Both the position numbers and the translations under genes were made by a program. A DNA stretch of 31,838 bases from an uncultured Caldimicrobium sp. (GTDB lineage Bacteria; Desulfobacterota; Thermodesulfobacteria; Thermodesulfobacteriales; Thermodesulfobacteriaceae). Of this stretch, positions 2,667 to 27,726 are shown piece by piece (the stretch's first letter is position 1; each line of letters opens with the position of its first letter). The stretch is taken from positions 1-31,838 of the forward strand of contig CAZJUD010000075.1 in assembly GCA_964549125.1 (NCBI GenBank), in the 5' to 3' direction. The notes beneath the pieces are model-generated. The model worked only from the letters and a program-made list of their open reading frames with translations, had not been told where the DNA came from and ran no database searches.

Positions 2667-3820
2667 TGCGAATACTTCTTACCTCAGACTGGCATATTGG
2701 GAAAACCCTTTTTTCTAAAAACCTTCTTGAGGAGCAAGCTAAGTTCTTTGAGGACACCTTTTTTGCTTATCTAAAAGAGGTAAAGCCTAACCTTCTTATC
2801 AACGCTGGAGACATTTTTGACCGCCCTATTCCAGACCTTGATTCCTTAAGGCTCTTTGAAGGGGTCATAAAGAGGCTTTATGAGGAAAAAGTTCAGTCCC
2901 TTTTTATTCTTGGGAATCATGACTCAAGAAGGGCAAGCATTCATTGCGAGTTGTTGAAGGAGGTTGGTATAACTATTGCTCGGGATTTAACCTCTTTCTT
3001 CAACCCTTTAAGGTTTGATAATTCTGGCACAAAGGTTTATCTCTATGTACTTCCCTACTTATCTTTAAGGGAGTATGAGGAGGAGGTTAAGGAGCAGGAC
3101 TTTGAGAACACCGCGGATTTTCTTACGAACCTACTAAAAAAATGGACAAGCCACATTAAGAAACCGGCTATTCTTGTTTCTCATCTTGCCGTATCAGGCA
3201 CAGTTTGGACTGATGAGGAGCTCCCTCTTAAAGGTCTAAGTAGGGAGTATTTACTTCCCCTTGAATGTTTTTCAGCCTTTGATTTAGTCTTCCTTGGACA
3301 TCTTCATAGCCCTCAGGTTCATCAGGGAAAATTTATCTACCCTGGCTCCCCCCTTCCTTACTCCTTTGACCTTTCAACAAAAGAAAGAGGGTTCACCCTA
3401 ATTGAGATAAAGGACGGAAGACTTTCCCATCTTGAACAAATTCCACTTCCTTCTCCTTATGAACTAAAGGTTTATGTAGATTACTTTGAAAACTTACGGC
3501 GTCTTCCTCAAGATAGGGCTTATGTTAAAGTGGTGCTTAAGGATAAACAGCCGATATACGAGGTTGAAAGGGAATTAAGAAAGGTCTTCCCTAATCTTAT
3601 GACCTTACTTTACGAGGAGGATGAAAGGAAAGAAAATTCTGCAAACTTCTATGCTTTCATGGAGGAGGGTAGGTCAACCTCTTTTGAGTTAGAGCCTTTG
3701 ACAGTTTTTAAAAACTTCTATAAACATATACTTGGTAAGGAGATTGAAGAGGAGGTTTGGCAGGTCTTTAACAAATACTATCAAAAATTTATAGGGGAGG
3801 TTGAGAAGTATGGCCATTAA
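2666..3820 (+). CDS. sbcD: Exonuclease SbcCD subunit D (Mre11-like metallophosphoesterase)
   Basis: TSDWHIG, AGDIFD, GNHD, SH, LGHLH, YPGSP motifs and an SbcD-type C-terminal domain. Confidence 0.9.
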   Translation: MRILLTSDWHIGKTLFSKNLLEEQAKFFEDTFFAYLKEVKPNLLINAGDIFDRPIPDLDSLRLFEGVIKRLYEEKVQSLFILGNHDSRRASIHCELLKEVGITIARDLTSFFNPLRFDNSGTKVYLYVLPYLSLREYEEEVKEQDFENTADFLTNLLKKWTSHIKKPAILVSHLAVSGTVWTDEELPLKGLSREYLLPLECFSAFDLVFLGHLHSPQVHQGKFIYPGSPLPYSFDLSTKERGFTLIEIKDGRLSHLEQIPLPSPYELKVYVDYFENLRRLPQDRAYVKVVLKDKQPIYEVERELRKVFPNLMTLLYEEDERKENSANFYAFMEEGRSTSFELEPLTVFKNFYKHILGKEIEEEVWQVFNKYYQKFIGEVEKYGH

Positions 3821-4622
3821 GGTAGTGGTTGCAGGATGCGCTGGAAGGATGGGGCAGACCATTTGCAGACTGGTTCTTGCTGATAAGGAGCTTGAACTTG
3901 CTGGCTGCTTTGAAGCGAAGACAAACCCCTATGTTGGAAAAGATTTAGGAGAGGTATTAGGTATGCCGGCTCTTGGCATTAAGGTTGAAGATTCCTTAGA
4001 GAAGGTCATTGACAAGGGAGATGTAATAGTAGACTTTACTTTTCATACCGCAAGCTTAGAGCATGCCCGAGTTAACGCTAAGTATAAGAAGGCAATGGTC
4101 CTTGGGACAACTGGTTTTAGCAAAGAGGAGCTTTCGGAGATCCATGAGCTTGCACGGCAAAACTTTCCGCTCGTTCAGGACTACAACATGAGCACAGGAG
4201 TCAATCTTCTTGTGAAGCTCTGCGAGATTACGGCAAGGGTTTTATCACAAGGCTACGACATTGAGATCATAGAGGCTCATCATCGGATGAAGAAGGATGC
4301 GCCAAGCGGAACGGCTCTTAAGCTTGCTCAGGCAATCGCTAAGGTTCTTGGTAGGACGGATAAGGACTTTAGGTTCTGCAGAGAGGGCATCATTGGCGAG
4401 AGGTCAGATAGGGAGATCGGTATACAGACGATAAGGGGTGGAGACATCGTCGGAGAACATACAGTCCTATTTGCTGGCATCGGTGAACGGATAGAGCTTA
4501 CCCATAGGGCAAGCTCAAGAGAGACCTTTGCCAGAGGCGCAATAAGAGCTATAAAATGGGTCTACGGAAAGGAGCCCGGTGTCTACAGTATGCAGGATGT
4601 CCTTGGTTTGAAGGACCTATAA
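3810..4622 (+). CDS. dapB: 4-hydroxy-tetrahydrodipicolinate reductase
   Basis: GCAGRMG, DFT, GTTG, EAHHRMKKDAPSGTAL, RGGDIVGEH. ATG at 3810 follows GGAGG at 3796-3800. Confidence 0.97.
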   Translation: MAIKVVVAGCAGRMGQTICRLVLADKELELAGCFEAKTNPYVGKDLGEVLGMPALGIKVEDSLEKVIDKGDVIVDFTFHTASLEHARVNAKYKKAMVLGTTGFSKEELSEIHELARQNFPLVQDYNMSTGVNLLVKLCEITARVLSQGYDIEIIEAHHRMKKDAPSGTALKLAQAIAKVLGRTDKDFRFCREGIIGERSDREIGIQTIRGGDIVGEHTVLFAGIGERIELTHRASSRETFARGAIRAIKWVYGKEPGVYSMQDVLGLKDL

Positions 4623-4626
4623 GGAA

Positions 4627-4908
4627 ATGCCTTTTAGCTTGAAGCTTCTTTTACCAATTTTGCTTTGGTTTCTGTTTAGCATTAGGTACTATCCAAGCGA
4701 CCTTGAAAAGACGGTGGTTGAAACGGCTAAGATCTTTATCGGTTCAGGGCTTTGGAGTCTTGGGACGGTGCTTGTAGTTAATGGGCTTTTGCATCGTTTT
4801 AGCAGAAGAAGCCTTGACCCTCACTCTATGCTACGCTGGGTTCTCTGGCTTGCCGTCATCACCGCCATTTCTGCAAGCTTTGAACATTACTTCGGGCTAC
4901 GCAGATGA
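4627..4908 (+). CDS. Hypothetical small membrane protein (about 3 hydrophobic segments)
   Basis: Fills the gap between dapB and murI, with an ATGA overlap on murI and hydrophobic stretches. No family recognised. Confidence 0.7.
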   Translation: MPFSLKLLLPILLWFLFSIRYYPSDLEKTVVETAKIFIGSGLWSLGTVLVVNGLLHRFSRRSLDPHSMLRWVLWLAVITAISASFEHYFGLRR

Positions 4909-5726
4909 TAGGCGTTTTTGATTCTGGGCTTGGGGGATTGACGGTTGTAAAGGAACTTTTAAAGCACCTTCCGCAGTATAAGATCGTTTACTTTGGGGAT
5001 ACCGCAAGGACACCCTACGGCACAAAGAGCGCAGAAACCGTCATCCGCTATGCCATTGAGGATACAAAGTTCTTGCTTAGCCTTTCGGCTAAGATAATAG
5101 TCGTTGCCTGCCACACCGTTTCAAGCACCGCTATGCCAACCCTTAGGGAACTTTTTCCGAATGTCCCTTTTTTTGAGGTAGTAACCCCATCCTTTAGAAA
5201 GGCTTTAAGCCTAACCAAAAACAAGAAAATTGGTCTCATCGGCACAAGGACAACCGTTGAGAGCAGGATCTACGAGAAGCTTTTTTCAGAAGCTGACCCA
5301 GAGATAAAGCTTTACTCAAACCCTGCCCCTCTTCTTGTGCCTTTAATCGAGGAAGGATGGATAAAGAAGCCTGAGACAAGAAGCATCGTGAAGAAGTATC
5401 TAATTCCCCTTAAAATGAGAGGGATCGACGCACTTATTCTTGGCTGCACCCATTATCCTTTGCTAAAAAAGGTTATTCAAGAGAAGGCAGGAAAAAGGAT
5501 TAAGCTTGTTGACCCTTCCGAGGAAGTAGCTCTGCTTGTTAAGTCCTACCTTGAAGAAAATCCAAGCTTAAAGGAGATGTTAGCCCCAAACGGAGAACCT
5601 GAGGTATACGTTTCTGATTTAACGCCAAACTTTGAGCGGATGGCAAAGCTTTTTCTTCAAAGGAATGTTAAGCTACGTAAGGTTGACCTTGAGTCCTATC
5701 TTTCTAAGTGTGTAGATAAATCATAA
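4905..5726 (+). CDS. murI: Glutamate racemase
   Basis: IGVFDSGLGGLTV, GDTARTPYG, ACHT (usually ACNT), LGCTHYP; both catalytic Cys present. Confidence 0.96.
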   Translation: MIGVFDSGLGGLTVVKELLKHLPQYKIVYFGDTARTPYGTKSAETVIRYAIEDTKFLLSLSAKIIVVACHTVSSTAMPTLRELFPNVPFFEVVTPSFRKALSLTKNKKIGLIGTRTTVESRIYEKLFSEADPEIKLYSNPAPLLVPLIEEGWIKKPETRSIVKKYLIPLKMRGIDALILGCTHYPLLKKVIQEKAGKRIKLVDPSEEVALLVKSYLEENPSLKEMLAPNGEPEVYVSDLTPNFERMAKLFLQRNVKLRKVDLESYLSKCVDKS

Positions 5727-5738
5727 GGGAGATAAAAG

Positions 5739-6926
5739 ATGGGGTATATTGTAGAGATGGGAGAGCTATATCTTGCTCCAAACTATAAGCGTATACCTTT
5801 AGCCTTTGTTCGAGGACAGGGGACAAGACTTATTACTGAGGATGGAGTTGAGTATCTTGACTTTACTTCAGGGATTGCCGTCTGCAACCTTGGGCATACT
5901 CATCCTCGTCTCGTTTCAGTAGTTAAAAAACAGGCAGAGCTACTTTGGCATACATCAAACCTTTTCTACACGGAGCCCCAAGCAAGGCTTGCCATGAAGC
6001 TTTCTGAGCTAACCTTTGCCGACCAAGTCTTTTTTGCAAATAGCGGTGCCGAATCCGTTGAAGCAGCCTTAAAGCTTGCAAGAAAGTATGCCCAGGATAA
6101 CTTCGGCAAGGAAAAGCATGTCTTCATTGCCCTTGAAAACTCCTTCCATGGAAGGACGATGGGGGCTTTATCCGTTACTGGTCAGCCAAAGTATTGGCAG
6201 GGCTTTGAGCCCCTTGTTCCAGGAGTAGTTTTTATCCCCCCAAACGATGTGGAGGCTTTGAAATCAGCCTTTTCCGATAAGGTTTGCGCTATAATTCTTG
6301 AACCAATTCAAGGGGAGGGTGGAATTTATCCTTTGGATAGAGATTTTATTCTTTTTGCTAAGGAGCTATGCGAAAAGCATAAGGCTCTTCTCATATTTGA
6401 CGAAGTTCAGACGGGAATTGGAAGAACTGGAAAGCTTTTTGCCTACGAACACTTCGGTGTAGAGCCAGACCTTCTTTGTTCCTCAAAGGCTCTGGCAAAC
6501 GGACTTCCTCTGTCAGCCCTTCTTGGAAAAAAAGAGGTTATGGCTCATCTGACTCCTGGGTCTCATGCCTCAACCTTTGGAGGAAACCCCATTGCCTGTG
6601 CCGTAGCCCTTGAAGTCCTAAACATCGTCTCAGAGGCAGGTTTCTTAGAAGAGGTCGCCCTAAAAGGTAAGGTTTTAAAAGAAAAGCTTGAAGGGCTTGT
6701 CAAGGAGCATCCTAATTTGATTAAAGAGGTCCGTGGGATTGGTTTGCTTTTAGCTATAGAATTTTATGAACCTGCTGAAAGGGTCTTCAAAGGGTTGTTG
6801 GAAGAGAGAGTGCTTGTCACCATGCCAAAGCCCAATGTCGTAAGGCTTACCCCACCTTTGACCCTAAACTACCGAGAAATAGATTATTTTATTGAAGCTC
6901 TAAGCCAGGTCCTTAAAAGAGGTTAA
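5739..6926 (+). CDS. argD: Acetylornithine aminotransferase (class III PLP)
   Basis: FANSGAESVEAA, FHGRTMGALS, EPIQGEGG, FDEVQTGIGRTG, SKALANG (PLP Lys), HASTFGGNP. Confidence 0.93.
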   Translation: MGYIVEMGELYLAPNYKRIPLAFVRGQGTRLITEDGVEYLDFTSGIAVCNLGHTHPRLVSVVKKQAELLWHTSNLFYTEPQARLAMKLSELTFADQVFFANSGAESVEAALKLARKYAQDNFGKEKHVFIALENSFHGRTMGALSVTGQPKYWQGFEPLVPGVVFIPPNDVEALKSAFSDKVCAIILEPIQGEGGIYPLDRDFILFAKELCEKHKALLIFDEVQTGIGRTGKLFAYEHFGVEPDLLCSSKALANGLPLSALLGKKEVMAHLTPGSHASTFGGNPIACAVALEVLNIVSEAGFLEEVALKGKVLKEKLEGLVKEHPNLIKEVRGIGLLLAIEFYEPAERVFKGLLEERVLVTMPKPNVVRLTPPLTLNYREIDYFIEALSQVLKRG

Positions 6927-7689
6927 GAAGTTCTGAAATGTTTAAATCTAAAGAGGTTTTTAGACTTTCAAGGGTATCGTAGTTTGTTAAATCAAACTGA
7001 ATAGGGGTAATGGTTATGTAGCCCTCTTTTAGGGCGATGACATCGGTGTCAGGGCTTGTCTCAGTATGTTCTTCTGCCCCTTGCCAATAGTAGACCTTGC
7101 CGTGTAGGTCAAGCCTTTTGTCAAAGAATTCCTTTAACGGTGCCGTTGATTGTCTGACGAACTTTATTCCTTTTATGTTATTTGGATTTATGTGGGGGAT
7201 GTTGATGTTTAAGCAGAAGGGTTTTTTAATGGGCAAGGAGGGGAGGATTTTGATAAAATTTGCGATAAAGTTTGCGGCAAAGCAATAGTCTATGTTTTCG
7301 TAGGCGTCGATTGAGACTGCAATCCCTGGGTAGCCGAGGATTTTAGCTTCCGTTGCAGCGGATACTGTGCCAGAATAAAGGACATTTATACCAACATTAG
7401 CTCCTCGGTTTATCCCGGATATGACTAAATCTACCGGACCAATAAGCTCGTAAATAGCAAGCTTTACGCAATCAGCAGGGGTTCCAGATACCGCATAACC
7501 CCAGAAGAATTTTCCCCTTCTTATTTCCTTCACCCGCAGAGGATAATGAATGGTTATGGCATGACCAACGGCGCTTCTTTCTGCCTCTGGGGCAACGATG
7601 TAAACCTCATGTTCACAGCTTAGGGCAGCACTCAACGCACAAAGCCCGTCAGCGTAAATTCCGTCATCGTTCGTTAAAAGGATCTTCAT
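6913..7689 (-). CDS. surE: 5'/3'-nucleotidase SurE
   Basis: ILLTNDDG, SAVGHAIT, GTPADCV, SGINRGANVG, YSGTVSAA. Its 3' end overlaps argD convergently by 14 bp. Confidence 0.97.
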   Translation of the reverse strand: MKILLTNDDGIYADGLCALSAALSCEHEVYIVAPEAERSAVGHAITIHYPLRVKEIRRGKFFWGYAVSGTPADCVKLAIYELIGPVDLVISGINRGANVGINVLYSGTVSAATEAKILGYPGIAVSIDAYENIDYCFAANFIANFIKILPSLPIKKPFCLNINIPHINPNNIKGIKFVRQSTAPLKEFFDKRLDLHGKVYYWQGAEEHTETSPDTDVIALKEGYITITPIQFDLTNYDTLESLKTSLDLNISELLNLF

Positions 7690-9049: not shown

Positions 9050-9805
9050 TTAGTTGTTCTTTAACAAAATAAGTGCTGCTGAGATGAGTAAGAAGATGTT
9101 TACAAGATAATAAAAGGCTTTGGTTGAAAGTTTTAAATAAAGTCTCTGTCCAAGGTATAAACCGATAAGAACAATAGGTAGATTGAGAAGGAAGGAAGAA
9201 AACGTTTCTTTAGTAATATTTCCTTGAAAGGCATGATTGATGATAGCAAAAAGGGCAGTCATCATAAAGATAACCTGAAGGTTTACTTTAAAAAGGTCCT
9301 TTTTCAGTTTAAGAAGAGAAAAGTAGATTACAATGGGTGGACCTGGTGTGTAGAGTATCCCTCCAAGGAAGCCTACGATAAAGGCAACAGCCAAGGATTT
9401 TCCGCTTTTAAAAACCCTTGGGTCAATTTGCGAAAGATAGGTTGTTTCTTTTCCTAAGAAGTGCTCTAAGACTTCCCAGATAAAGTAAGAAAGTATAGCT
9501 ATGAAAAGAAGGATCCTTAAAGTTAGCTCTGAGACGGTTTTAAAACCATAAACACCTATGATAACTCCAACCAGTATAGCCACAAAGAACCGAATAGGAA
9601 TGTTTGATACTTTCTTTTCTTTCATCAGCAAAAATGTGGCAAGATTTACCGCAAAGGATAAAAGAGAAAGAAGGGGGACAGAGAACTTTACGCTTTTTAC
9701 CAAAGCTAAGAGGGGAAGAGCAGTTGTCGCAAAGGCAAAGCCAACGAGTCCATGGATTAAAGCAGATAAAAAAAGGACAATCCCTACTAAAATGTCATCT
9801 TTCAT
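9050..9805 (-). CDS. Sulfite exporter TauE/SafE family membrane protein
   Basis: 251 aa, about 8 hydrophobic segments, two-fold internal repeat (HGLVGFAF / GFLGGILYTPGPP). Confidence 0.8.
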   Translation of the reverse strand: MKDDILVGIVLFLSALIHGLVGFAFATTALPLLALVKSVKFSVPLLSLLSFAVNLATFLLMKEKKVSNIPIRFFVAILVGVIIGVYGFKTVSELTLRILLFIAILSYFIWEVLEHFLGKETTYLSQIDPRVFKSGKSLAVAFIVGFLGGILYTPGPPIVIYFSLLKLKKDLFKVNLQVIFMMTALFAIINHAFQGNITKETFSSFLLNLPIVLIGLYLGQRLYLKLSTKAFYYLVNIFLLISAALILLKNN

Positions 9806-10818: not shown

Positions 10819-11682
10819 CTACTCTAAGGCTTTAAGATTGTAAAGATATCTCTGCATAAAGACTAAGGTTCCCTTAACCCTTTCTAAAAGGTTTGATGCG
10901 CTCTTTAGCTCAGTCTTTGCCTGCTCTAAATCTCTTTCTAAGCTTGAGAGGCTTTTCTCTAAGACCGGCAGAGCCTCTTCAAATCTTTCTCGGCTAAGAC
11001 TAAAGAAAAATCTATCCCAAAGAGTAAGAACCATCATCAGAGTTTGGGGAAGGGCTTGATAAGGGACAGGGATTATCCCTTCTCTTTCAAGGTCAAAAAA
11101 GATGCGAAGCTTAAGATAGCTATACAAACCATCAGGGACGACCATAAGGGCAAAGCCTACAGACCGCTCATCCTTGAGATAGCTTATTATCTCCTTTGCT
11201 CGATCCTTGGCTCGCCGGACGATTTCCCGTTCATCCTCAGGAGTTAGTTCAGACTTTGCTAAAATCTCTGGTGATGAGAGCTTAGAATCTATGGGGACAA
11301 ACTTTTCTCCCTTTAACCGCAGGGCAAACTCAACAACACCTGAAGATAGCTTAACATTACGAACAATGGTCCCTGGCGGAAAGAGTGAAAGAAGCTCCTC
11401 AACTGCCCGTTCTCCAACCTGACCTGAACGCCTGCCAAAAAGCACTCCTGAGATCTTCTTTACCTCCTCTGCAATGCCTTTCCCAAGCTCCTCCGCCGTG
11501 TAGAGCTTTACTAAGTCTTTTTTTATCTCCTGAAGGTCCTTTAGTCTTTCTTCAAGCTTTATACTCACCTGATTAAAGGATTTGTCTATTCTTCCTTCCA
11601 ATAGGCTTTTAATTTTTAGATAAAGATAGAGTAAGATTATAAAATTAATGATCAGAAGACTAACAATTAGGATATCCTTCAT
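10819..11682 (-). CDS. rmuC: DNA recombination protein RmuC family
   Basis: N-terminal TM and coiled coil, G..GE..VEELL, VPIDSK nuclease motif, FALMVVP, C-terminal coiled coil. Short for the family. Confidence 0.75.
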   Translation of the reverse strand: MKDILIVSLLIINFIILLYLYLKIKSLLEGRIDKSFNQVSIKLEERLKDLQEIKKDLVKLYTAEELGKGIAEEVKKISGVLFGRRSGQVGERAVEELLSLFPPGTIVRNVKLSSGVVEFALRLKGEKFVPIDSKLSSPEILAKSELTPEDEREIVRRAKDRAKEIISYLKDERSVGFALMVVPDGLYSYLKLRIFFDLEREGIIPVPYQALPQTLMMVLTLWDRFFFSLSRERFEEALPVLEKSLSSLERDLEQAKTELKSASNLLERVKGTLVFMQRYLYNLKALE

Positions 11683-12077
11683 TTATTAAATGACAAAATT
11701 TTTAGGGCCATATCAACCACAGATAAACCAATTATTGGACAGCCTAACTTGTTTTCTGGGATACCTTCAAGCTCAGCTATGATGTCTTCCTTTGAGATTT
11801 CCTCAAGGATACGTCTTAGGTCTTTTCCCTTGAGCTTCTCAGTTAAGACACTCAAAAATGCTACAGCAGGAACGCACCCTTGCAGTTTAAACTTTACATC
11901 CTCTACGATAAAATGTCTTAGTTTAAAGTAGACCTTAAGTAAGCAAGGAGAAGGGGGAGAGTCCACGCTACATTGGGGATTGGAAATTTCCACAATGGGA
12001 TAGGCATCGGGTATTTCGCCTACATTTTTGGCTGATAAGAATTCTTTAATCAGTCTTTTGCTATAGTAACTATTCAA
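11679..12077 (-). CDS. Divergent IscU/NifU-N scaffold paralog
   Basis: Aligns by eye to the adjacent IscU (KNVGEIPDA, NPQC, VEDVKFKLQGC, ISKEDIIAELEGIPENKLGC). TTG start. Confidence 0.8.
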   Translation of the reverse strand: MNSYYSKRLIKEFLSAKNVGEIPDAYPIVEISNPQCSVDSPPSPCLLKVYFKLRHFIVEDVKFKLQGCVPAVAFLSVLTEKLKGKDLRRILEEISKEDIIAELEGIPENKLGCPIIGLSVVDMALKILSFNK

Positions 12078-12086
12078 TTTTAAGCT

Positions 12087-12464
12087 CTATTTCTTTTGTT
12101 CTTTCTTGCTTTGATAATCTTCAATAGCCTTTTTCAAGGCGTCAAGCCCAAGCACAGAACAATGGACTTTCTGAGGAGGAAGACCACCAAGCTCTTCTAC
12201 AATATCCTCCTTTTTAATCTTTAAAGCTTCTTCTATGGTTTTGCCTTTTACCATCTCTGTAAGAATGCTTGAGACGGCTATCGCTGCTGCACAGCCAAAG
12301 GTCTTAAATTTTATATCTTCTATCCTATCATCTTTAACCTTGATGTAAAGATACATCATGTCTCCACAAACAGGATTTCCTTCCACACCCACCCCATCGG
12401 CATCGGGGATTTCTCCTACATTCCTTGGGTTCATGAAATGTTCAACTACCTTTGCACTGTACAT
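12087..12464 (-). CDS. iscU: Fe-S cluster assembly scaffold IscU/NifU-N
   Basis: YSAKVVEHFMNPRNVG, GNPVCGD, FKTFGCAAAIA, LPPQKVHCS; all canonical ligands present. Confidence 0.95.
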   Translation of the reverse strand: MYSAKVVEHFMNPRNVGEIPDADGVGVEGNPVCGDMMYLYIKVKDDRIEDIKFKTFGCAAAIAVSSILTEMVKGKTIEEALKIKKEDIVEELGGLPPQKVHCSVLGLDALKKAIEDYQSKKEQKK

Positions 12465-12495
12465 AGGTTCCCCCCTTTTAGTTGGTAAAGGGATC

Positions 12496-13704
12496 TTAGT
12501 GGTGAGGGCAAGTGGCTTTTTCCCATTTTTCCATATCCTTCCATCCTTCTTTAAAAGGAGAAAGCTCTCTTAACCTTTCTACAACCTCAGGCATGGTGTT
12601 TAATACATAATCTATGTCCTCTTCTTGAGTGTCTTTACTGAGCACAAAGAGGATTGACCCCTGTATAAGATGGGCAGGATAACCCATGGAAGACAAAACT
12701 GGCGAGGCTTTAAGTGCTTTAGAACTGCAAGTTGAGCCACTTGAAGTGTAGATTCCCTTAAAGGCTAACATGAGAAGCATGGCTTCCCCTTCAACGAACT
12801 CCACGATGAAGCTTGCATGACCAGGTAGTCGTTTTTCTGGATGCCCTGTTAGATGTAGATTGGGTATCCTTTCCAAAAGTCCCTTTATCAATCTATCTCT
12901 TAGTGCCTGCATCTTTGGCACCATCGTTGGTAGGTTTTGACGAAGCAGCCTTGCTGCTATACCCATTCCTACAATGGCAGGCACGTTTTCCGTTCCTCCT
13001 CTACGACCTCCCTCTTGAATTCCACCATAGATAATGGGTTGAACCCTGACCCCCTTTCTTATGTATAGTGCTCCAGCTCCTTTTGGACCATAGAACAGAT
13101 GAGCAGAAAGAGATAGGGCATCCACTCCTAAGTCGTCCACATCAACCTTCATCTGAGGGATTGCTGCCACTGCATCAGTATGCACCAAAGCACCAACCCT
13201 TTTGGCTAACCTTACCACTTCTTTAACGGGTTGTATTGTCCCAACCTCTGGATTAGCTAACTGAACAGAAACTAACACCGTATCCTCTCGCAAAGCTCGC
13301 TCTAAGAAGTTTAGGTCTATCACTCCATACCTGTCCACAGGAAGAAAGGTAACCTCAAAACCTTCTCTCTCAAGATGCCTTGCTGGATTAGTTATGGAAT
13401 GATGCTCTACTGTAGAAACGATGACATGGTTTCCTTTCTTTTTGTTAGCCTTGGCTAAGCCCACTATAGCCATATTGTTTGATTCGGTGCCTCCGGAAGT
13501 GAAGATTATTTCTTGGGGTTTAGCCTTGATGAGTTCTGCTACCACCACTCTTGCCTCTTCAACAGCCTCCCTTGCCCTTTGACCAAGGTCGTAAGGACTA
13601 AGGGCATTGCCAAAAATTTCCCTAAAATAGGGTAGCATACCTTCTAAAACTTCTTCTGCAGGCTTGGTAGTGGCAAAGTTGTCTAAATATACAGTTCTGT
13701 TCAT
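12496..13704 (-). CDS. iscS: IscS/NifS-family protein lacking the PLP Schiff-base lysine
   Basis: YLDNFATT, FTSGGTES, VEHHS, HTDAVAA, SAHLFYGPKG (Leu at the Lys position), GGTENV, SSGSTCSS (Cys326 retained). Confidence 0.9.
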   Translation of the reverse strand: MNRTVYLDNFATTKPAEEVLEGMLPYFREIFGNALSPYDLGQRAREAVEEARVVVAELIKAKPQEIIFTSGGTESNNMAIVGLAKANKKKGNHVIVSTVEHHSITNPARHLEREGFEVTFLPVDRYGVIDLNFLERALREDTVLVSVQLANPEVGTIQPVKEVVRLAKRVGALVHTDAVAAIPQMKVDVDDLGVDALSLSAHLFYGPKGAGALYIRKGVRVQPIIYGGIQEGGRRGGTENVPAIVGMGIAARLLRQNLPTMVPKMQALRDRLIKGLLERIPNLHLTGHPEKRLPGHASFIVEFVEGEAMLLMLAFKGIYTSSGSTCSSKALKASPVLSSMGYPAHLIQGSILFVLSKDTQEEDIDYVLNTMPEVVERLRELSPFKEGWKDMEKWEKATCPHH

Positions 13705-14063: not shown

Positions 14064-14525
14064 TTATAAAGAAAAGACTGCTTTGACTTTAAATTTTTTC
14101 TTTGCTGGGAAGGCATAGAATTTCAAACCGTAGGCGTTGCTTAGGTTTTCGAGGTAGGGGCGTAGGTCCTTAGGGCTTGGAAGGACGAGGGTGAACCAAA
14201 AATTTAGAGAATGCTCTCTTAGGTAGGCGTGAGTTACCTCTGGGAGGTCTGCTATTTCTTGGGCTAAGTAGAGTTTAGATTCAGGGATTGAGGTTGCGCA
14301 AAGACAGGTAAAGTGTTTGAGCTTATGGGAGTCAGGACTTGCCCCAAGGTGTCTAATTATGCCTTCCTCTTTTAGTTTTTTTAAAAAGGATAAGACCTCA
14401 TCTTCGGTTAGCCCAACTTTTTCAGCAAGAACCTTGAAGGGTTCAGGATGTAGGGGAAAATCCTCTTGAATAAGGTTTAAAAGTTCTCTGTAGGGCTCCT
14501 TAAGGTCTGATATTGATAAGCTCAT
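14064..14525 (-). CDS. ahbA: Siroheme decarboxylase subunit AhbA (Lrp/AsnC-like fold)
   Basis: IQEDFPLHPEPF, GIIRHLGA, PEVTHAYLREH, NFWFT; typical of the AhbA/NirD-L family. Confidence 0.8.
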   Translation of the reverse strand: MSLSISDLKEPYRELLNLIQEDFPLHPEPFKVLAEKVGLTEDEVLSFLKKLKEEGIIRHLGASPDSHKLKHFTCLCATSIPESKLYLAQEIADLPEVTHAYLREHSLNFWFTLVLPSPKDLRPYLENLSNAYGLKFYAFPAKKKFKVKAVFSL

Positions 14526-18964: not shown

Positions 18965-20257
18965 ATGGCTGAAGACCTAAAGAAGATGTATCGGACCATC
19001 GTTACCGACCATTTTCCGAACGAGCTTCGTATAACCTTTGGTGATCAGACCTTGATCTACAAGAAGCGAACTTGGGACCTTGAGGTAGCACCAGGGGAGA
19101 TCGAAAGAAGAGGTTTGCGCTACGGAGAAAACCCAGACCAGGAGGCAGCCCTCTATGAATTGGTGGCTGGAAACCTTATTCTTGGAGAATGTGAATTCAT
19201 TAAGCCTGGGTTAGGTTTGGTCTCAAGCCTTAAGGAATCTGATTTTATTCAGTTTGGGAAACATCCAAGCAAAACCAATCTTACCGATGTGGACAACTCT
19301 TTAAACATCATGCGTTATCTCATGGAGAAGCCTTGCTGTATAATTGTTAAGCACAACAACCCCTGTGGTGTAGCCTACGGATCAACCCTTGAAGAGGCTT
19401 TTCTGAGGGCTTTTAGTGCAGACAGGGTTGCTGCCTTTGGCGGAGCTATAACTCTTAACCGACCTGTAGACAAAGCCACAGCAGAAGCCATTGTGGAGCA
19501 CTACTTTGAAGTCCTTGCCGCCCCTGATTTTGAAGAAGGAGCTATAGACATCTTGACAAAGAGAAAGGATTTAAGGATCATCCGCATAAAAAGAATGGAC
19601 CGCCTGGTGGAGTATGCCAACTATCCTGTTGTAGAGTTCAAAAGTTTGATGGATGGCGGGCTTATCATTCAAGTTTCTCAGAAAAATCGCATAAGAAGCA
19701 AGGAAGACCTAAAGCCAGCAGTAGCGGTCAAGGACGGTGTAGAATACCGTTGCGTAAGAGAGCCTGACGAGAGAGAGATTAGAGATATGATCTTTGGCTG
19801 GGCGGTTGAGCTTGGAGTAACTTCAAACTCCGTTCTTTTTGTTAAGGATGAAAGGACGGTTGCTATTGGAACAGGTGAGCAGGATAGGGTTGGTTGCACC
19901 GAGATTGCCATCTTCAAAGCCTACAGAAACTATTCTGACTGGCTATGCTATCAAAAGTACCGTATTTCCTACAAACAGCTTGAGCTTGAGGTCGAGAGGG
20001 GCCTTAGACCAAAAGAGGAGAAGGAGGAAATAGACGAGGAAACGAGGAAGAACAAGGCTGGGCTTATCGGCGCTGTGATGGTGTCTGATGGCTTTTTGCC
20101 CTTTAGGGATGCTGCGGATGTTGCCATAAGGCAGGGTATCACAGCCATCCTCCAGCCTGGTGGCTCAGTTAGAGACTGGGAGGTTATCCAGGCTTGCAAT
20201 GAAGCCTATCCTCCCGTAGCCATGATGTTTACTGGACAGAGGGCTTTTAAACACTAA
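18965..20257 (+). CDS. purH: PurH-like AICAR transformylase lacking the N-terminal IMP cyclohydrolase (MGS-like) domain
   Basis: RYGENPDQ by about residue 55 (about residue 200 in full PurH), KHNNPCG, AFGG, SNSV, GTGEQDRV, SDGFLPF, QPGGSVRD, RAFKH. Confidence 0.85.
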   Translation: MAEDLKKMYRTIVTDHFPNELRITFGDQTLIYKKRTWDLEVAPGEIERRGLRYGENPDQEAALYELVAGNLILGECEFIKPGLGLVSSLKESDFIQFGKHPSKTNLTDVDNSLNIMRYLMEKPCCIIVKHNNPCGVAYGSTLEEAFLRAFSADRVAAFGGAITLNRPVDKATAEAIVEHYFEVLAAPDFEEGAIDILTKRKDLRIIRIKRMDRLVEYANYPVVEFKSLMDGGLIIQVSQKNRIRSKEDLKPAVAVKDGVEYRCVREPDEREIRDMIFGWAVELGVTSNSVLFVKDERTVAIGTGEQDRVGCTEIAIFKAYRNYSDWLCYQKYRISYKQLELEVERGLRPKEEKEEIDEETRKNKAGLIGAVMVSDGFLPFRDAADVAIRQGITAILQPGGSVRDWEVIQACNEAYPPVAMMFTGQRAFKH

Positions 20258-20890: not shown

Positions 20891-22534
20891 ATGCCCCTTG
20901 GAAAACCCTTCTATCCCTTTCCAATCCTTCTTATCCTCTTGATTTTTCTCTTAGTCTCTTCTCAAACCTTTTCCTTTACTTTGAAGTCTTTTAAGCAAAA
21001 CGGCAAAAAAAAAGAGGTTCCTTTGCTTACTACTGGAAAGCCTGAGGGCTGTCTTTTCTGCCACGACGAGAAGGTTGAGGAGAAGGTGCATGCCCGGGAG
21101 ATGCTTGGTTGTTCAAGCTGTCATCTTGGAAACCCTTTAACAGTAGATTACCGTGCGGCTCACAAAGGCGTGGTTAAGAATCCTTCAGACTTAAGGATTG
21201 TCCACAAGACCTGCGGTCAGGCAAACTGCCACCCACAAGACCTAAACAAGGTGAAAAATAGCCTTATGGCTACAAACCATGGCATCCTTGTTAGGCTTCT
21301 AAAGGTCTTTGGAGAAGAGGCAATCCTTAAGGAACATCCAAACATCAGCGTAGAAGACTTATACAGCCTTAGGACCTCATCCCTTGCCCTGGATTACTTC
21401 AAGAAGCTCTGCGGCTCCTGCCACCTTTTTCTGGAAAAGGGAAGGCTTCCCGATTTTTTGGCAGAAAAGGGAGGTGGATGCTCAGCCTGCCATCTTGTTG
21501 GTAATAAAGAAGATTTAAAAAACCGCAAGCTTCATCCTCGTCTTACAGCAAAGATCCCTCTTGAGAAGTGTGTTCTCTGCCACAACCGTAGTGGAAGGAT
21601 CGGCTTTACCTATCAGGGGCTCTATGAGGATGAGCAGAGCGGGGAGGGTGAGGTGGTATACATCGACGGAAGAAAGCTACGAAAGATCAAGCCTGATGTT
21701 CATTATAAGGCAGGGCTTCACTGCATTGATTGCCATACAAGGGATGAGGTCATGGGGAACGGAACCTTCTATCGTAAGATTGAGGATGCCCTGCAGGTTG
21801 ATTGCGAAACCTGTCACTTAAGAAAAGGCTTAACTAAGGCTGGAACAAGGCTTGCAAACATCGTAGAAAGGGATGGGAAGGTTTTTCAGAAGGGAAAGGT
21901 TGATGAAAGGTGGCATTTAGTTAAGGCTCCTTCAAAGGACTGTCAGGATAGGTATCACAGGAGGCTATCCTGCTCAGCCTGCCATGCTAAGTATGTTCCT
22001 CAATGCTACGGCTGTCATGTAAGGTATGATCCGAGGGAGAGACACCTTGACAAGATCCTTGCAAGAGAAACAAAGGGGCTTTGGGAGGAGCATGAGTCCT
22101 ATCGCCGGATTGATGAGCCAACTCTTGCAGTAAAAAAAGACAAGATTGTTGTGGTTACTCCAGGTTGACAGGATTTTGTGTCTATCCTCTCGGAGGAGGG
22201 GAAGTTAGCTCGCTACTTTGAAAGCATTACCTTTGCTCAGATTGAGCCCCATTCAACGCAAAGAAAGGGCCGATCTTGTAAAGATTGCCATCAAAACCCT
22301 AAGGCAATCGGACTTGGCTACCGAGAGGGATTGGATAGGCTATCCCGGGTTGGGGACCGTGAGGGAAGGGCTTTGGTTAAGTTTAACCGTGAAGGACTAA
22401 GACCCTTCACCAAGGAGGAGTTAGAGAGAGTCCTAAAGGTTGGGCTTTGTTTGTCCTGCCATGAAGAAAGGGATAGAATTTTTAAGAGCTGGAGGAGCGA
22501 TTTAAAATGTCCAAGGTTAAAGACCTTACCTTGA
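20891..22534 (+). CDS. Multiheme c-type cytochrome (11 CxxCH plus 1 CX4CH), probable selenoprotein with in-frame TGA at 22166-22168
   Basis: Track ORFs 20891-22168 and 22178-22534 are in one frame, joined by GGT-TGA-CAG-GAT-TTT-GTG (TPG-U-QDFV). N-terminal signal/anchor, 9 CxxCH plus CGQANCH before the TGA and 2 CxxCH after it. SECIS-like hairpin downstream. Confidence 0.8.
22182..22208 (+). promoter_or_regulatory. Putative bacterial SECIS element
   Basis: TCCTCTC-GGAG-GAGGGGA (22185-22202): 7-bp stem with one G-U, G-initiated tetraloop starting 23 nt after the TGA. Extendable by CTA/TAG pairing (22182-22184 with 22206-22208). Confidence 0.65.
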
Positions 22535-23544
22535 TGACAGGGCTTGAAAAGATCTATGGGTGCGGAGCCTTAAACTGGGATATCTTCTTTGAGGTGCCCT
22601 CCCTTGAAGTTTTGCAAAACATCCCCTCAGTTGATTTTGAAGTAAAGCCTGGGGGCGAAGTTGCAGTCAGCCGAGAAAAATTTTTGAAGATCCTTTCTGA
22701 GCTTGAAAAAAATGGGAAAAGGGTCTTTTCTTGCGGAGGGGGATCCTCGGCAAACACCATCTTTGCCCTATCCCAGCTTGGTTTTCACGCTGGCTTTATT
22801 GGGGTTTGTGGCTTTGATGACTTTGGCGAGCTTGTTTTGAGGGAGCTTTCCCGAGCTAAAGTTGATTTAAGCCTTGTTGAAAGGTATGGAGAGACAAGCT
22901 TAGCTTTGATCATCCTTGATCATTCACGAGATCGTTTTATTATCGTTAGTCCTGGCTCAGCTGAAGCCTTATTCCAAAAAGAAACCTTCCTTTCCCGTGC
23001 AAAAGAAAGGCTTCTTAAGGAAAGAGCCCTTCTTCATCTATCGTCCCTTGCAAGCCTTGAAGGGCAGAATTTTCAAAAAAGGCTTCTTCTTGAGCTTTCC
23101 CCGAAGGAAAGGATAGACCTTTTTGTTTCCTTTGACCCAGGGCAGGTCTACGCTAAGAAAGGTAGGCATTTTCTTTTAGAGTTTCTTCCCTATGTAGATA
23201 TTTTATTTGCCACTGAGGATGAGCTTTTAGAGGCAAGGCTCGATACTAAGGAAATTTTTAGTCATTCAGTCCTTGTCCTTTTTCTAAAGAAGGGGAAAAG
23301 GGGTGCTAAGGCATTAGGCAAAGATTTTGAGTTTTCGCAAGATGCTATTCCGACGGAAAAGATAGTTGATAACACTGGGGCTGGTGATTACTTCAACGCC
23401 GGAGTTTTAGCTGGCTTAATGCTTGGGAAAACCCTTGATAAAGCCTTACATCTTGGTGCTCTTCTTGCAAGCCTAAGTCTTTCTGATTATGGAAGAAGGG
23501 GCATCCTATTTATAAATAGGCAAAATTTATTAAAATGTGAATAG
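22534..23544 (+). CDS. PfkB/ribokinase family sugar or nucleoside kinase
   Basis: GCGALNWD, GGSSANT, GFIG..G.DDFG, FDPG, DNTGAGDYFNAG. ATG 22534 overlaps the cytochrome stop (TGATG); the track start is 22507. Confidence 0.88.
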   Translation: MTGLEKIYGCGALNWDIFFEVPSLEVLQNIPSVDFEVKPGGEVAVSREKFLKILSELEKNGKRVFSCGGGSSANTIFALSQLGFHAGFIGVCGFDDFGELVLRELSRAKVDLSLVERYGETSLALIILDHSRDRFIIVSPGSAEALFQKETFLSRAKERLLKERALLHLSSLASLEGQNFQKRLLLELSPKERIDLFVSFDPGQVYAKKGRHFLLEFLPYVDILFATEDELLEARLDTKEIFSHSVLVLFLKKGKRGAKALGKDFEFSQDAIPTEKIVDNTGAGDYFNAGVLAGLMLGKTLDKALHLGALLASLSLSDYGRRGILFINRQNLLKCE

Positions 23545-24859: not shown

Positions 24860-26236
24860 ATGTGTGGGATTATAGGTGTCTACGGAGTTCCCTCAGCCTC
24901 AAAGATCACCTTCTTTGGGCTTTATTCCCTTCAGCATAGAGGACAAGAGAGCGCAGGTATTGCTGTTTTTGACGGAAAGCAAGTTAGACATTATCGGGGC
25001 ATGGGCCTTGTTTCTGAGGTCTTTGATGAAAAGATACTCCAAGAGCTTCCCGGTGATATAGCTGTAGGGCATGTTCGCTACTCTACTGCAGGTTCTTCAA
25101 CCATCATCAACGCTCAACCCTTCTGCGTAAACTACGCTAAGAAGACAATAGCCCTTGCTCATAACGGCAACTTAGTAAACGCTGAAAGCCTTCGCTGTGA
25201 GCTTGAGGAAGAGGGACACATCTTCCAGACCACGATGGATAGCGAAGTTATCGTCCATCTTATCGTAAAGCATCTAAAAGAAGGGCTCGTGGAAGCTATT
25301 TCCAAGGCTATGCAAAGGATCAAGGGTGCCTACTCAGTGGTCATGCTTGTTGACGGGACCTTGGTAGCCTTTAGAGACCCCCACGGCTTTCGACCCCTTT
25401 CCTTAGGGATGCTAAACGGAGGCTACGTTATCGCCTCTGAAACCTGCGCCTTTGACCTTCTTTCTGCCGAGTATTTACGAGACATTGCTCCGGGTGAAAT
25501 CTTGGTGATCGATGAAAACGGTCCACAGAGCTACTTCCCCTTTGAAAGTCCTCAGCGCCTTGCCCACTGTATCTTTGAGTTTATATACTTTGCTCGCCCT
25601 GATAGCACAATCTTTGGGAAGAACGTCTACCTTGTGAGAAAAAGGCTTGGAGAGAAGCTCTACGAAGAGTGTCCGCTAAGTGCTGATTTTGTCATGCCCT
25701 TTCCGGATTCTGGGAACTATGCCGCAATCGGGTATGCCGCAAAGGCTCATCTTCCATTTGAGTTTGGTGTTATAAGGAACCACTACATCGGGCGAACCTT
25801 TATTCAGCCTTCTGAAAAGCTTCGGGACCTTTCAGTCCGGATGAAGTTAAATCCTGTAAAAGAATTGATCCGTGGCAAAGAGGTGATCGTGATCGATGAT
25901 TCCCTCGTCCGAGGGACGACAAGCAAAAACCGTATAAGGAGCATAAAACTTGCCGGAGCAAGGGCTATTCACTTTCTAATTACTTGCCCGCCTTTGCGTT
26001 ATCCTTGCTTTTTTGGCATCGATTTTCCAAGCAAGCAGGAGCTCATCGCTGCAAAACACTCAATTGAAGAGATTAGAAAATTCCTTGACATAGAAACCCT
26101 TTATTACCTCAGCCTTGAAGGGATGCTTTCAGCGGTAGAAGACCTTTCAGACAAAGTTTGCACCGCCTGCTTTACGGGAGACTATCCTGTTCCTCTTCAG
26201 CAACCCTTTCGCAAAGACTTTGCCGAGGTCAAATGA
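24860..26236 (+). CDS. purF: Amidophosphoribosyltransferase (Fe-S type)
   Basis: MCGI N-terminal nucleophile, QHRGQESAG, GHVRYSTAG, HNGNL, IDDSLVRGTTS, Fe-S Cys in HCIFE, PCFFG and CTAC. Confidence 0.97.
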   Translation: MCGIIGVYGVPSASKITFFGLYSLQHRGQESAGIAVFDGKQVRHYRGMGLVSEVFDEKILQELPGDIAVGHVRYSTAGSSTIINAQPFCVNYAKKTIALAHNGNLVNAESLRCELEEEGHIFQTTMDSEVIVHLIVKHLKEGLVEAISKAMQRIKGAYSVVMLVDGTLVAFRDPHGFRPLSLGMLNGGYVIASETCAFDLLSAEYLRDIAPGEILVIDENGPQSYFPFESPQRLAHCIFEFIYFARPDSTIFGKNVYLVRKRLGEKLYEECPLSADFVMPFPDSGNYAAIGYAAKAHLPFEFGVIRNHYIGRTFIQPSEKLRDLSVRMKLNPVKELIRGKEVIVIDDSLVRGTTSKNRIRSIKLAGARAIHFLITCPPLRYPCFFGIDFPSKQELIAAKHSIEEIRKFLDIETLYYLSLEGMLSAVEDLSDKVCTACFTGDYPVPLQQPFRKDFAEVK

Positions 26237-27726
26237 TGAGGGCTTACGAAGACCTTCAAGAATTCATCGCAACCTTGGAAAAAAAGGGGGAACTTCTACG
26301 CCTAAAAGAAGAAGTCTCCGTTGAGCTTGAGATCACAGAGATAACAGACAGAGTAGTGAAAAGAAAAGGTCCTGCTCTTTACTTTGAAAGGGTCAAAGAA
26401 AGCAACATTCCAGTGGTAACAAATCTTTTTGGTAGTGAAGAGAGGGTTTGCTTAGCCCTTGGGGTAAGCTCCTTTGATGAGCTTTCGCAGAGGGTTTTAG
26501 ATTTTCTTGAGGTTCGCCCTGGTGAAGGGTTGATGCACAAGCTTAGGCTTATCCCTAAGCTTCTTCAGGCTAAGAATGTTTTCCCAAAGATGGTTGACAA
26601 AGCTCCCTGTCAGGAGGTCATCCTTCAAGGAAAGGAGGTTGACCTCTTTAAGCTCCCTATCTTGAAATGCTGGCCTGAGGATGGGGGAAGGTACATTACC
26701 CTTCCCTGCGTGATTACTAAGGACCCTGAGACCGGGGTTCGTAACGTTGGCATGTATCGCCTGCAGGTCTTTGAAAGGAATAAGACGGGCATGCATTGGC
26801 AGATGCACAAGGTTTCTGCAAAGCATTATCAAAAGGCAGAAAGACAGGGAAAGAGGCTTCCTGTTGCCGTTGCCATCGGACCTGACCCTGCAGTCATCTA
26901 CGCCGCAACCGCTCCCCTTCCAGAGGATATTGACGAGTTTATGCTTGCTGGCTTTTTAAGAGGGGAGCCTGTTCGTCTTGTCAGATGTTTGACCATTCCT
27001 CTTGAGGTTCCAGCAAACTCTCAGATCGTTCTTGAGGGCTACGTTGAGCCCTTTGAAAGACGCATTGAAGGTCCCTTTGGCGACCACACCGGATTTTACA
27101 CTGAGCCTGAACCTTTCCCAGTGTTTACCGTCCAAGCAATTACCATGAGGAAGGATGCCATCTACCCAGCAACCATAGTTGGCAAGCCACCTCAAGAAGA
27201 CGCTTACCTTGGTAAAGCCACGGAAAGGCTTTTTTTGCCCTTGATCAAGATGGTTTTGCCAGAGGTTGTAGATATAAATCTACCGGTTGAAGGAGTTTTC
27301 CATAACTTTGCCTTTGTCTCTATCGATAAGAGGTATCCTGGGCATGCTTACAAGGTTGCCCATGCCATCTGGGGTCTCGGTCAGTTGATGTTTACTAAGT
27401 TTGTTTGCGTCTTTGATAAGCATGTAAACGTGCATGACCTTCGTGAAGTTATCTTTTATCTTGGGGCAAACGTTGACCCGGCTCGGGATATTCAAATCGT
27501 CAAAGGTCCGGTAGACCATCTTGACCATGCTGTATCAACCATAGGTTTTGGGGGAAAGGTTTGCATTGATGCTACAACAAAGCTAAAGGAGGAGGGCTAC
27601 GAGCGGACCTGGCCAAGAGAAATAAGCATGAGCCCTGAGGTTAAAGCAAAGATTGATAAGCTCTGGCAAAAACTTAAGCTTGATGTCCTTCTCGAAGAAT
27701 ACAAAAGGAGGAGGAGAAATTCATGA
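26233..27726 (+). CDS. UbiD-family decarboxylase, menaquinone (futalosine pathway) type
   Basis: LEITEITDRV, WPEDGGRYIT, RNVGMYRLQ, EGPFGDHTGFY, GKPPQED, GPVDHLDH, IDATTK. Start ATG 26233 or 26236 overlaps the purF stop; the track start at 26158 is an extension into purF. Confidence 0.88.
   Translation: MMRAYEDLQEFIATLEKKGELLRLKEEVSVELEITEITDRVVKRKGPALYFERVKESNIPVVTNLFGSEERVCLALGVSSFDELSQRVLDFLEVRPGEGLMHKLRLIPKLLQAKNVFPKMVDKAPCQEVILQGKEVDLFKLPILKCWPEDGGRYITLPCVITKDPETGVRNVGMYRLQVFERNKTGMHWQMHKVSAKHYQKAERQGKRLPVAVAIGPDPAVIYAATAPLPEDIDEFMLAGFLRGEPVRLVRCLTIPLEVPANSQIVLEGYVEPFERRIEGPFGDHTGFYTEPEPFPVFTVQAITMRKDAIYPATIVGKPPQEDAYLGKATERLFLPLIKMVLPEVVDINLPVEGVFHNFAFVSIDKRYPGHAYKVAHAIWGLGQLMFTKFVCVFDKHVNVHDLREVIFYLGANVDPARDIQIVKGPVDHLDHAVSTIGFGGKVCIDATTKLKEEGYERTWPREISMSPEVKAKIDKLWQKLKLDVLLEEYKRRRRNS

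Follow-up and report, generated by a model that had tools for sequence, protein, structure and literature searches.

The subject of this analysis is a gene on the forward strand of contig CAZJUD010000075.1, from an uncultured Caldimicrobium sp. (assembly GCA_964549125.1), which lies within a stretch of 31,838 nucleotides (nt) referred to here as the window. It has been listed as two open reading frames (ORFs) separated by an in-frame TGA. The explanation we prefer, and consider likely, is that this is one gene in which the UGA at codon 426 is read as selenocysteine (Sec), the product being a twelve-heme cytochrome c resembling ExtM of Geobacter. The narrower claim, that the protein is a selenoprotein, is very probable. 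The case for Sec rests on a comparative signature: a conserved TGA, an invariant Cys aligned with it in homologues, and constrained codons downstream. Together these support the initial annotation of this DNA, which had read the internal TGA as Sec.

The first ORF (20891-22168, forward strand) encodes 425 amino acids (aa) and ends with the TGA at 22166-22168. This is followed by the codons CAG, GAT and TTT and then, in the same frame, by GTG 22178, at which the listed 118-aa ORF begins. Read as one, the frame remains open through to the TGA at 22532-22534 and yields a product of 547 aa in which the internal TGA is codon 426, in the context VTPG*QDFV; residues 419-438 of the joined protein are IVVVTPG-x-QDFVSILSEEGK, where x is residue 426. 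Translation and a motif scan confirm the earlier description of two ORFs sharing a frame and split by TGA-CAG-GAT-TTT, and of a joined protein with eleven CxxCH motifs (residues 54, 74, 174, 197, 227, 278, 305, 361, 372, 463 and 520) and one CX4CH motif (CGQANCH, residues 108-114). Ten of these twelve heme motifs precede the TGA and two follow it, so that the site falls between motifs 10 and 11, as had been proposed. The downstream piece, with its two CxxCH motifs, had been said to have no export signal, and inspection of its sequence indeed found no hydrophobic leader. The hydrophobic segment at the N-terminus of the joined protein is without a lipobox Cys. The full-length protein would have a mass of about 62 kDa as the apoprotein and about 70 kDa as the holoprotein, against about 54 kDa for the 425-aa product. 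The initial annotation had also drawn attention to an overlap between the final stop and the ATG of the neighbouring gene, a pfkB-like kinase identified by NCBIfam. The TGATG is present, but the longest ORF of the kinase may begin at ATG 22507, in which case the overlap would be 28 nt and not 1 nt.

A protein search returned 1773 homologues, which fall into two length classes. Members of the short class, of about 420 aa (403-437 aa), come from Caldimicrobium, Thermodesulfobacterium and related metagenomes and are labelled as hypothetical proteins in public records; they form 23 clusters at 90% identity, all of which end exactly at ...TPG. The long class, of 560-600 aa and mostly from Desulfobulbia, covers 91-99% of the joined query. 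Cys occupies the codon-426 column in 96 of 96 aligned full-length homologues (VTPG-C-QD), and the Cys and His residues of the heme motifs are all invariant in an alignment of 114 sequences. Among the fetched loci, codon 426 is TGA in L001, L002 and L004-L010, which derive from metagenome-assembled genomes (MAGs) of Caldimicrobium and Thermodesulfobacteriaceae and from Thermodesulfobacterium thermophilum (L010, GCA_000421605.1), and which represent eight further distinct Thermodesulfobacteriaceae sequences with 59-87% aa identity. One Caldimicrobium thiodismutans MAG (L003) has TGC instead, and the Cys-type loci L011-L013 carry TGT or TGC at the site. On these comparisons the TGA is conserved and is no accident. 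The initial annotation had named a Trp, Arg, Gln or variable residue at this position, or homologues ending here, as the outcomes that would speak for a nonsense mutation, a sequencing error or two separate genes. Instead, the column is Cys in all of the aligned full-length homologues, and the eight distinct Thermodesulfobacteriaceae sequences that keep the TGA are all open in frame beyond it.

The sequence downstream of the TGA is constrained in the same way. Beyond the TGA of each relative lies an open frame of 121-145 codons in which the conserved motifs recur. In the 45 codons that come directly after the TGA, about 10% of nucleotides differ between the window and L001 or L002, and all of these differences are synonymous. 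The downstream ratio of non-synonymous to synonymous differences (pN/pS) is 0-0.54 overall, and the values against more distant relatives (0.13-0.54) resemble those of the upstream part. Judged by these ratios, the 121 codons which follow the TGA are under purifying selection.

These data bear directly on the suggestion that the locus comprises two genes or is deliberately truncated, producing a ten-heme unit of 425 aa, with a 118-aa piece that either starts at GTG 22178 or is left untranslated. Gene callers treat the locus in this manner, public databases hold hypothetical proteins of 403-437 aa, and UGA termination competes with Sec insertion so that some truncated product is likely. Such an arrangement is nevertheless very improbable as an account of the locus. 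The purifying selection downstream acts in the frame of the upstream ORF, the two parts are fused in every Cys-type homologue and in every Met-type homologue (described below), no terminator lies between them, and a separate two-heme piece would be without an export signal. GTG 22178 is moreover replaced by GTA, GTT or ATC in relatives, with no conserved downstream start, and because the GTG is not conserved the two-heme tail can arise only by translation past the TGA. The earlier proposal that the downstream ORF is part of one gene is upheld by the selection and by the lack of a conserved start. The chance that the locus is a pseudogene or reflects a mistake in sequencing or assembly, with TGC or TGT turned into TGA in one assembly, is negligible. 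TGA is a single substitution away from both codons; the same TGA, however, is present in eight other independent Thermodesulfobacteriaceae sequences and recurs on two metagenome contigs with distant homologues, with no decay downstream of it. The pseudogene or error reading is refuted by these comparative data.

The two distant contigs, L014 and L015, come from Joint Genome Institute (JGI) metagenomes and are homologues with truncated representatives in which TGA directly follows the PG and is succeeded by a conserved frame and motifs. Because they carry TGA at the same site, Sec is predicted there in at least three lineages. In each (L014, 304-3356; L015, 726-2147) the listed protein stops at a TGA after the conserved Pro-Gly and has an in-frame continuation. 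In L014 the gene is preceded by genes for a 320-aa rhodanese, just upstream, and for a tetratricopeptide repeat (TPR) protein; this brings to mind the Geobacter ext cluster with its rhodanese ExtH. In a neighbour-joining tree the Thermodesulfobacteriaceae form a clade that is mostly of Sec type, three Cys-type sequences branch at separate points within it, and the outgroup is all Cys. In MccSep, Cys-type forms are likewise nested among Sec-type forms (PMC13510729).

Translation past the UGA might proceed without selenium, if near-cognate or specialised suppression placed Cys, Trp or some other residue there. Recoding of UGA to Cys by an unusual tRNA-Cys together with SelB is reportedly found in some bacteria, and such read-through would suit both the lack of Sec machinery in the window and fetched loci and a hairpin that does not separate Sec from Cys forms, both of which are considered below. 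It is nonetheless improbable, although less so than a division into two genes. The residue aligned with the UGA is invariably Cys, the classic partner of Sec, the TGA is kept across 59-87% identity with occasional TGC, as in other selenoprotein families (PMC13510729), and TGA serves as the ordinary stop of other window genes. It terminates 8 of the 31 listed window genes, one of these stops being the final stop of the present gene. Reassignment of TGA in the genetic code was rejected because TGA is used as a normal stop within the window. This gene is the sole case in the window of a long coding frame crossing a TGA; three other candidates lie antisense to annotated genes, and a second selenoprotein candidate was not found there.

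Some observations weigh against Sec, among them the RNA downstream of the UGA. By the criteria of bSECISearch, a bacterial selenocysteine insertion sequence (SECIS) is a stem-loop placed shortly 3' of the UGA with a G in its apical loop. A SECIS-like hairpin is present in the window, and every Sec-type sequence, including L014 and L015, has a hairpin 16-20 nt past the UGA with a G within the first two loop positions. However, a hairpin is also found in three of the four Cys-type genes, and its register drifts by 1-5 nt between lineages, which weakens the evidence for a SECIS. Because of this shift in register, stabilities were compared, by mononucleotide shuffles and by synonymous-codon resampling, in place of a positional covariation test. 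Both tests indicated a tendency to structure which did not split Sec-type from Cys-type genes. The synonymous-codon z values range from -0.2 to -3.0 for the Sec forms (-1.2 for the window, -0.8 for L014 and -0.2 for L015) and from -1.3 to -2.3 for the Cys forms. An Rfam search of 22100-22320 at a permissive E-value gave chance matches only and no SECIS family. In view of the register drift, the Cys-type hairpins and the inability of resampling to separate Sec from Cys genes, the hairpin is not counted as proof; it is compatible with a SECIS and gives no independent proof of one. Furthermore, neither the 31.8-kb window nor any of the 15 fetched loci contains selA, selB, selD or tRNA-Sec; a scan of 30 ORFs of the window turned up no sel gene, and there is no tRNA in the window. 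Literature searches gave no usable account of Sec use in Caldimicrobium or Thermodesulfobacterium. Sec insertion at codon 426 would use the hairpin at 22185-22202 as its SECIS together with SelABCD encoded elsewhere in the genome.

The best NCBIfam match of the joined protein is ExtM (NF040943; 268 bits, E 1e-79), and since the equivalog cutoff of this model is 800 bits, a score which the protein falls far short of, it belongs to a distinct subfamily. Ten diverse relatives match the ExtM model with 187-338 bits over positions 8-595 of 599, and none reaches the cutoff. These matches make the protein a homologue of Geobacter ExtM (GSU2935), a distant one but over the full length. The superfamily is large: 1822 representatives, clustered at 50%, came out of an exhaustive profile search (E<=1e-3). 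The initial annotation had drawn its comparison with ExtKL. This analogy does not stand, as the joined protein has no match to the NCBIfam ExtKL model (NF040886) at E<=1 and is homologous instead to ExtM, the neighbour of ExtKL in Geobacter; the accompanying statement that it has more hemes than ExtKL is correct (twelve versus five). The models TIGR04315 and NF041027 likewise gave no match at E<=1, and a sequence search of the PDB returned only a weak NrfA-like stretch at residues 259-342. The models for ExtN (NF040967) and ExtO (NF040968) both match residues 357-498 of the joined protein (nt 21959-22384), with near-identical model coordinates and scores. NF040967 is described as a c-type cytochrome and NF040968 as an iron-sulfur and b-type cytochrome subunit. 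One of the two may be mislabelled, or both may have been built from one protein.

What residue 426 might do was approached through a structure model and through the composition of the site. An AlphaFold2 run with 21 sequences was not usable (predicted local distance difference test, pLDDT, 50), and the run with 114 sequences was used, which gave the joined protein a pLDDT of 86 and a predicted template modelling score (pTM) of 0.82. The predicted structure has a helix at residues 10-37 and consists elsewhere mostly of short helices round the heme motifs. Between the tenth and eleventh motifs these are interrupted by a beta-sheet domain, in which residue 426 sits between strands 418-424 and 428-433. 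Site composition was counted over the best 150 of the 1822 superfamily representatives. Among these, 92 have Met and 35 have Cys directly behind the aligned PG, while in two the chain ends there. The motif of the Met branch is VPG-M-[IV][LM]T and that of the Cys form is PG-C-Q; in pairwise BLASTP, TPGCQD aligns gaplessly with VPGMHF and VPGMIM.

Conserved residues outside the heme motifs are few. The close family has seven conserved non-motif His (67, 91, 215, 271, 356, 385 and 454) and two or three conserved Met (126, 288 and 448 in most members), and because there are no more than these, distal ligands are short for twelve hemes. Since the position of residue 426 is strictly Met in the largest branch of the superfamily, strictly Cys in others and predicted to be Sec in three lineages, this residue may be a soft metal ligand, most simply the sixth ligand of a heme, and we infer from the alternation an axial-ligand or distal-pocket site. 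That residue 426 lies at the distal site of a heme is probable; that the selenium binds the iron directly falls just short of an even bet. The initial annotation had suggested that Sec acts as a heme ligand or catalytic residue, an idea to which the alternation lends indirect support. A second variable heme-ligand position may be that of Cys351 (nt 21941-21943), which forms a C-x4-H356 motif, never varies within the close family and switches between Cys and His in the wider superfamily.

Sec426 could act differently, as a free catalytic selenol in a flexible loop beside a heme that is ligated by another residue, for example Cys351. There is a precedent in MccSep, in which Sec325, part of a D-G-U-P loop next to a His/Cys-ligated heme, attacks polysulfide (PMC13510729). 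In the present protein Sec is predicted to lie in a short P-G-U-Q turn of the beta domain between heme motifs, and the invariant non-motif Cys351 of C-x4-H356, with its Cys/His alternation, is ligand-like. We regard this arrangement as a real possibility but a doubtful one. The conserved Met in 92 of the 150 proteins would be unexpected as a replacement for a catalytic nucleophile, there is no sequence similarity to MccSep/ExtKL, and Cys351 is not specific to the Cys/Sec type, as Cys is found at this position in 43 of the 92 Met-type proteins. The superfamily comparison revealed no Cys specific to the Cys/Sec type that could be a resolving partner. Cys540 was considered as the resolving partner of Sec and rejected, a C-terminal Cys being equally common in Met-type proteins.

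On the preferred reading, with Sec at the distal site, the product would be a cytochrome c that faces the periplasm, carries a hydrophobic signal or anchor at its N-terminus and binds twelve hemes covalently. Residue 426 would be on the distal side of one of these hemes, giving either a His/Sec-ligated heme or a selenol over an open heme. The His/Cys hemes of TsdA, SoxAX and MccSep suggest, by analogy, that this special heme would be a low-potential site at which inorganic sulfur compounds, polysulfide or thiosulfate for example, react. Through the remaining eleven hemes it would be connected to a Rieske/cytochrome b module and the menaquinone pool, with electrons flowing in one direction or the other.

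The gene neighbourhood differs between the loci. In L004, L005 and L009/L010 (Sec type) and in L012 (Cys type) the gene lies directly behind genes for a Rieske protein and cytochrome b, and it overlaps the end of the cytochrome b gene in L009/L010 and L012, where genes were called. The window and the loci L001, L002 and L008 have it on its own, ahead of the pfkB-like kinase and tldD genes, and in Desulfobulbaceae it comes after nadE. The lineage is one of sulfate reducers and sulfur disproportionators, and gene context together with lineage biology hints at a sulfur substrate. The rhodanese gene of L014 is one such hint. L012 also contains, at 3100-7004 and on the opposite strand to the operon, genes for a YedE-like sulfur transporter (PF04143) and TusA and three small ORFs, with more multiheme cytochromes close by. 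We take this region to resemble the YTD cluster, a proposed marker of sulfur disproportionation.

Other points tell against so extended a reading. Near the gene in the window there is no Rieske or cytochrome b gene and no ext/cbc cluster, the neighbours there being housekeeping genes (greA, the pfkB-like kinase, tldD and purF). The suggestive gene context comes from other genomes, the assignment of a sulfur substrate is made by analogy, and a Foldseek search of the PDB found no solved relative (best E-value 1.1). A sulfur compound as the substrate is an evenly balanced proposition. The complete proposal is that Sec426 is a distal axial ligand and forms the first natural His/selenolate c-type heme, that the protein belongs to a superfamily with a Met, Cys or Sec ligand, and that the protein, as the cytochrome subunit or partner of a Rieske/cytochrome b complex, connects the menaquinone pool with the chemistry of inorganic sulfur in thermophiles that reduce sulfate or disproportionate sulfur. 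Taken jointly, these elements are put forward tentatively, as a whole somewhat more apt to fail than to hold. The coordinates of the gene and its parts are collected in Table 1.

Table 1. Features of the recoded cytochrome gene, in window coordinates.
Feature	Position	Strand	Basis or remark
Complete recoded gene, 547 codons and stop	20891..22534	+	Single frame; ExtM-like 12-heme cytochrome c, Sec likely at codon 426
N-terminal hydrophobic signal or membrane anchor, residues 1-37	20891..21001	+	Stretch FPILLILLIFLLV
Span of twelve heme c attachment motifs	21050..22462	+	Motif scan
Beta-sheet domain of long hairpins, residues 369-450 (predicted)	21995..22240	+	AlphaFold2, block pLDDT 87-98; between heme motifs 10 and 11
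In-frame TGA, very probably read as selenocysteine 426, VTPG-U-QDF	22166..22168	+	Codon comparison with relatives
C-terminal 121 residues beyond the TGA	22169..22531	+	Conserved His454, heme motifs 11 and 12
SECIS-like hairpin UCCUCUC-GGAG-GAGGGGA, 7-bp stem, loop GGAG	22185..22202	+	Folding; starts 19 nt past the U of UGA
True stop TGA	22532..22534	+	Overlaps pfkB-like kinase ATG 22534-22536 (TGATG)

Elsewhere in the window are a gene for an SCO4490-type menaquinone biosynthesis decarboxylase of the futalosine route (26158-27726, forward strand) and one for an AhbA/AhbB-like siroheme decarboxylase subunit of alternative heme biosynthesis (14064-14525, reverse strand), both of which fit an anaerobic, menaquinone-using, cytochrome-rich organism. 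At 11679-13704, on the reverse strand, two tandem NifU/IscU-like scaffold genes come after a gene for a NifS-type cysteine desulfurase, and the second of them matches NifU weakly (73 bits). Two ORFs of 251 and 287 aa (9050-9805 and 10819-11682, both on the reverse strand), situated in a well-annotated biosynthetic run, had no NCBIfam match at E<=1e-5. A purH-like gene at 18965-20257 (forward strand) matches only the C-terminal aminoimidazole carboxamide ribonucleotide (AICAR) formyltransferase part of the bifunctional PurH, at about positions 202-511 of the model, and appears to be without the inosine monophosphate (IMP) cyclohydrolase domain.

Neither the selenoprotein models of NCBIfam release 20 nor the table in a selenoproteome review of 2026 (PMC13188914) includes the family. 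It appears to be uncatalogued as a selenoprotein family; the supplementary lists of large-scale predictions may hold it. Multiheme cytochromes are already known among selenoproteins, in the form of ExtKL/MccSep, an octaheme cytochrome of the octaheme tetrathionate reductase (OTR) family and the GSU2204 family (PMC13188914). As far as can be told, the present protein would have the most hemes of any cytochrome-type selenoprotein in that table. Selenoproteins behind apparent stop codons are systematically mis-annotated, and here the public forms are without the last two hemes. Sec in this family would also tie selenium use to the poorly understood complexes of Rieske/cytochrome b and multiheme cytochromes in the Desulfobacterota. 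The Geobacter ExtM/Cbc cluster has been flagged as important yet uncharacterised since 2010 (PMC2825233), and the electron donor of MccSep, which adjoins the ExtM cluster, is unknown (PMC13510729). The family would be a concrete candidate for the periplasmic reaction, as yet missing, by which Caldimicrobium-like bacteria transform sulfur when they disproportionate thiosulfate or sulfur. The natural series of Met, Cys and Sec at one site would, in addition, provide a ready-made experiment on the chalcogen tuning of a heme.

A number of parallels can be drawn with systems already described. The closest is ExtM itself (GSU2935, also CbcM), a twelve-heme protein encoded in a conserved Geobacter bc cluster with the Rieske protein GSU2933 and the cytochrome b GSU2932 (PMC2825233); this cluster adjoins extKL (PMC11976967). 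The two proteins share twelve heme motifs and full-length homology, and the genes of relatives of the present protein lie behind Rieske and cytochrome b genes. They differ in that the present protein falls in a distinct subfamily and its gene is outside any ext/cbc cluster in the window, and in that ExtM has not been described as a selenoprotein.

The second comparison is with MccSep (ExtKL, GSU2937/GSU2936), a multiheme selenoenzyme which acts as a polysulfide reductase and was annotated as two ORFs split at a UGA (PMC13510729). Both would be periplasmic multiheme cytochromes c from sulfur-metabolising Desulfobacterota, with Sec in a short loop that contains Gly, within a domain rich in beta structure that follows most of the hemes in sequence, and MccSep is the genomic neighbour of ExtM in Geobacter. 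By contrast, MccSep has five hemes, a mass of about 49 kDa, an immunoglobulin-like domain and a DGUP motif, as opposed to twelve hemes and PGUQ here. In MccSep, furthermore, a separate Cys ligates the heme and Sec is a free nucleophile, whereas here the Sec position itself is suggested as the ligand. Similarity to MccSep was not seen in the PDB sequence and fold matches, and the MccSep structure may postdate the fold library.

In TsdA, SoxAX and DsrJ, Cys replaces His or Met as the distal ligand of one heme to give a low-potential, sulfur-reactive site. To our knowledge no member of these families uses Sec, and we know of no natural Sec-ligated c-type heme. The Cys-type members of the present family would fit the same Cys-ligand pattern, but they have no sequence or fold relationship to TsdA, SoxAX or DsrJ. 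The His/Cys-ligated heme has been discussed as a low-potential site of sulfur reactivity (PMC13510729). Selenoproteins with c-type hemes include an octaheme cytochrome of the tetrathionate reductase family (TIGR04315) and the CXXCH family of GSU2204 (NF041027) (PMC13188914). Finally, a Sec-ligated cytochrome P450 has a b-type heme, the P450 fold, Sec as the sole protein ligand, and a sequence and function unrelated to those of the present protein. It nevertheless offers a natural case of a UGA-encoded Sec in place of an axial Cys, and its public record is a truncated ORF (preprint PMC11703216).

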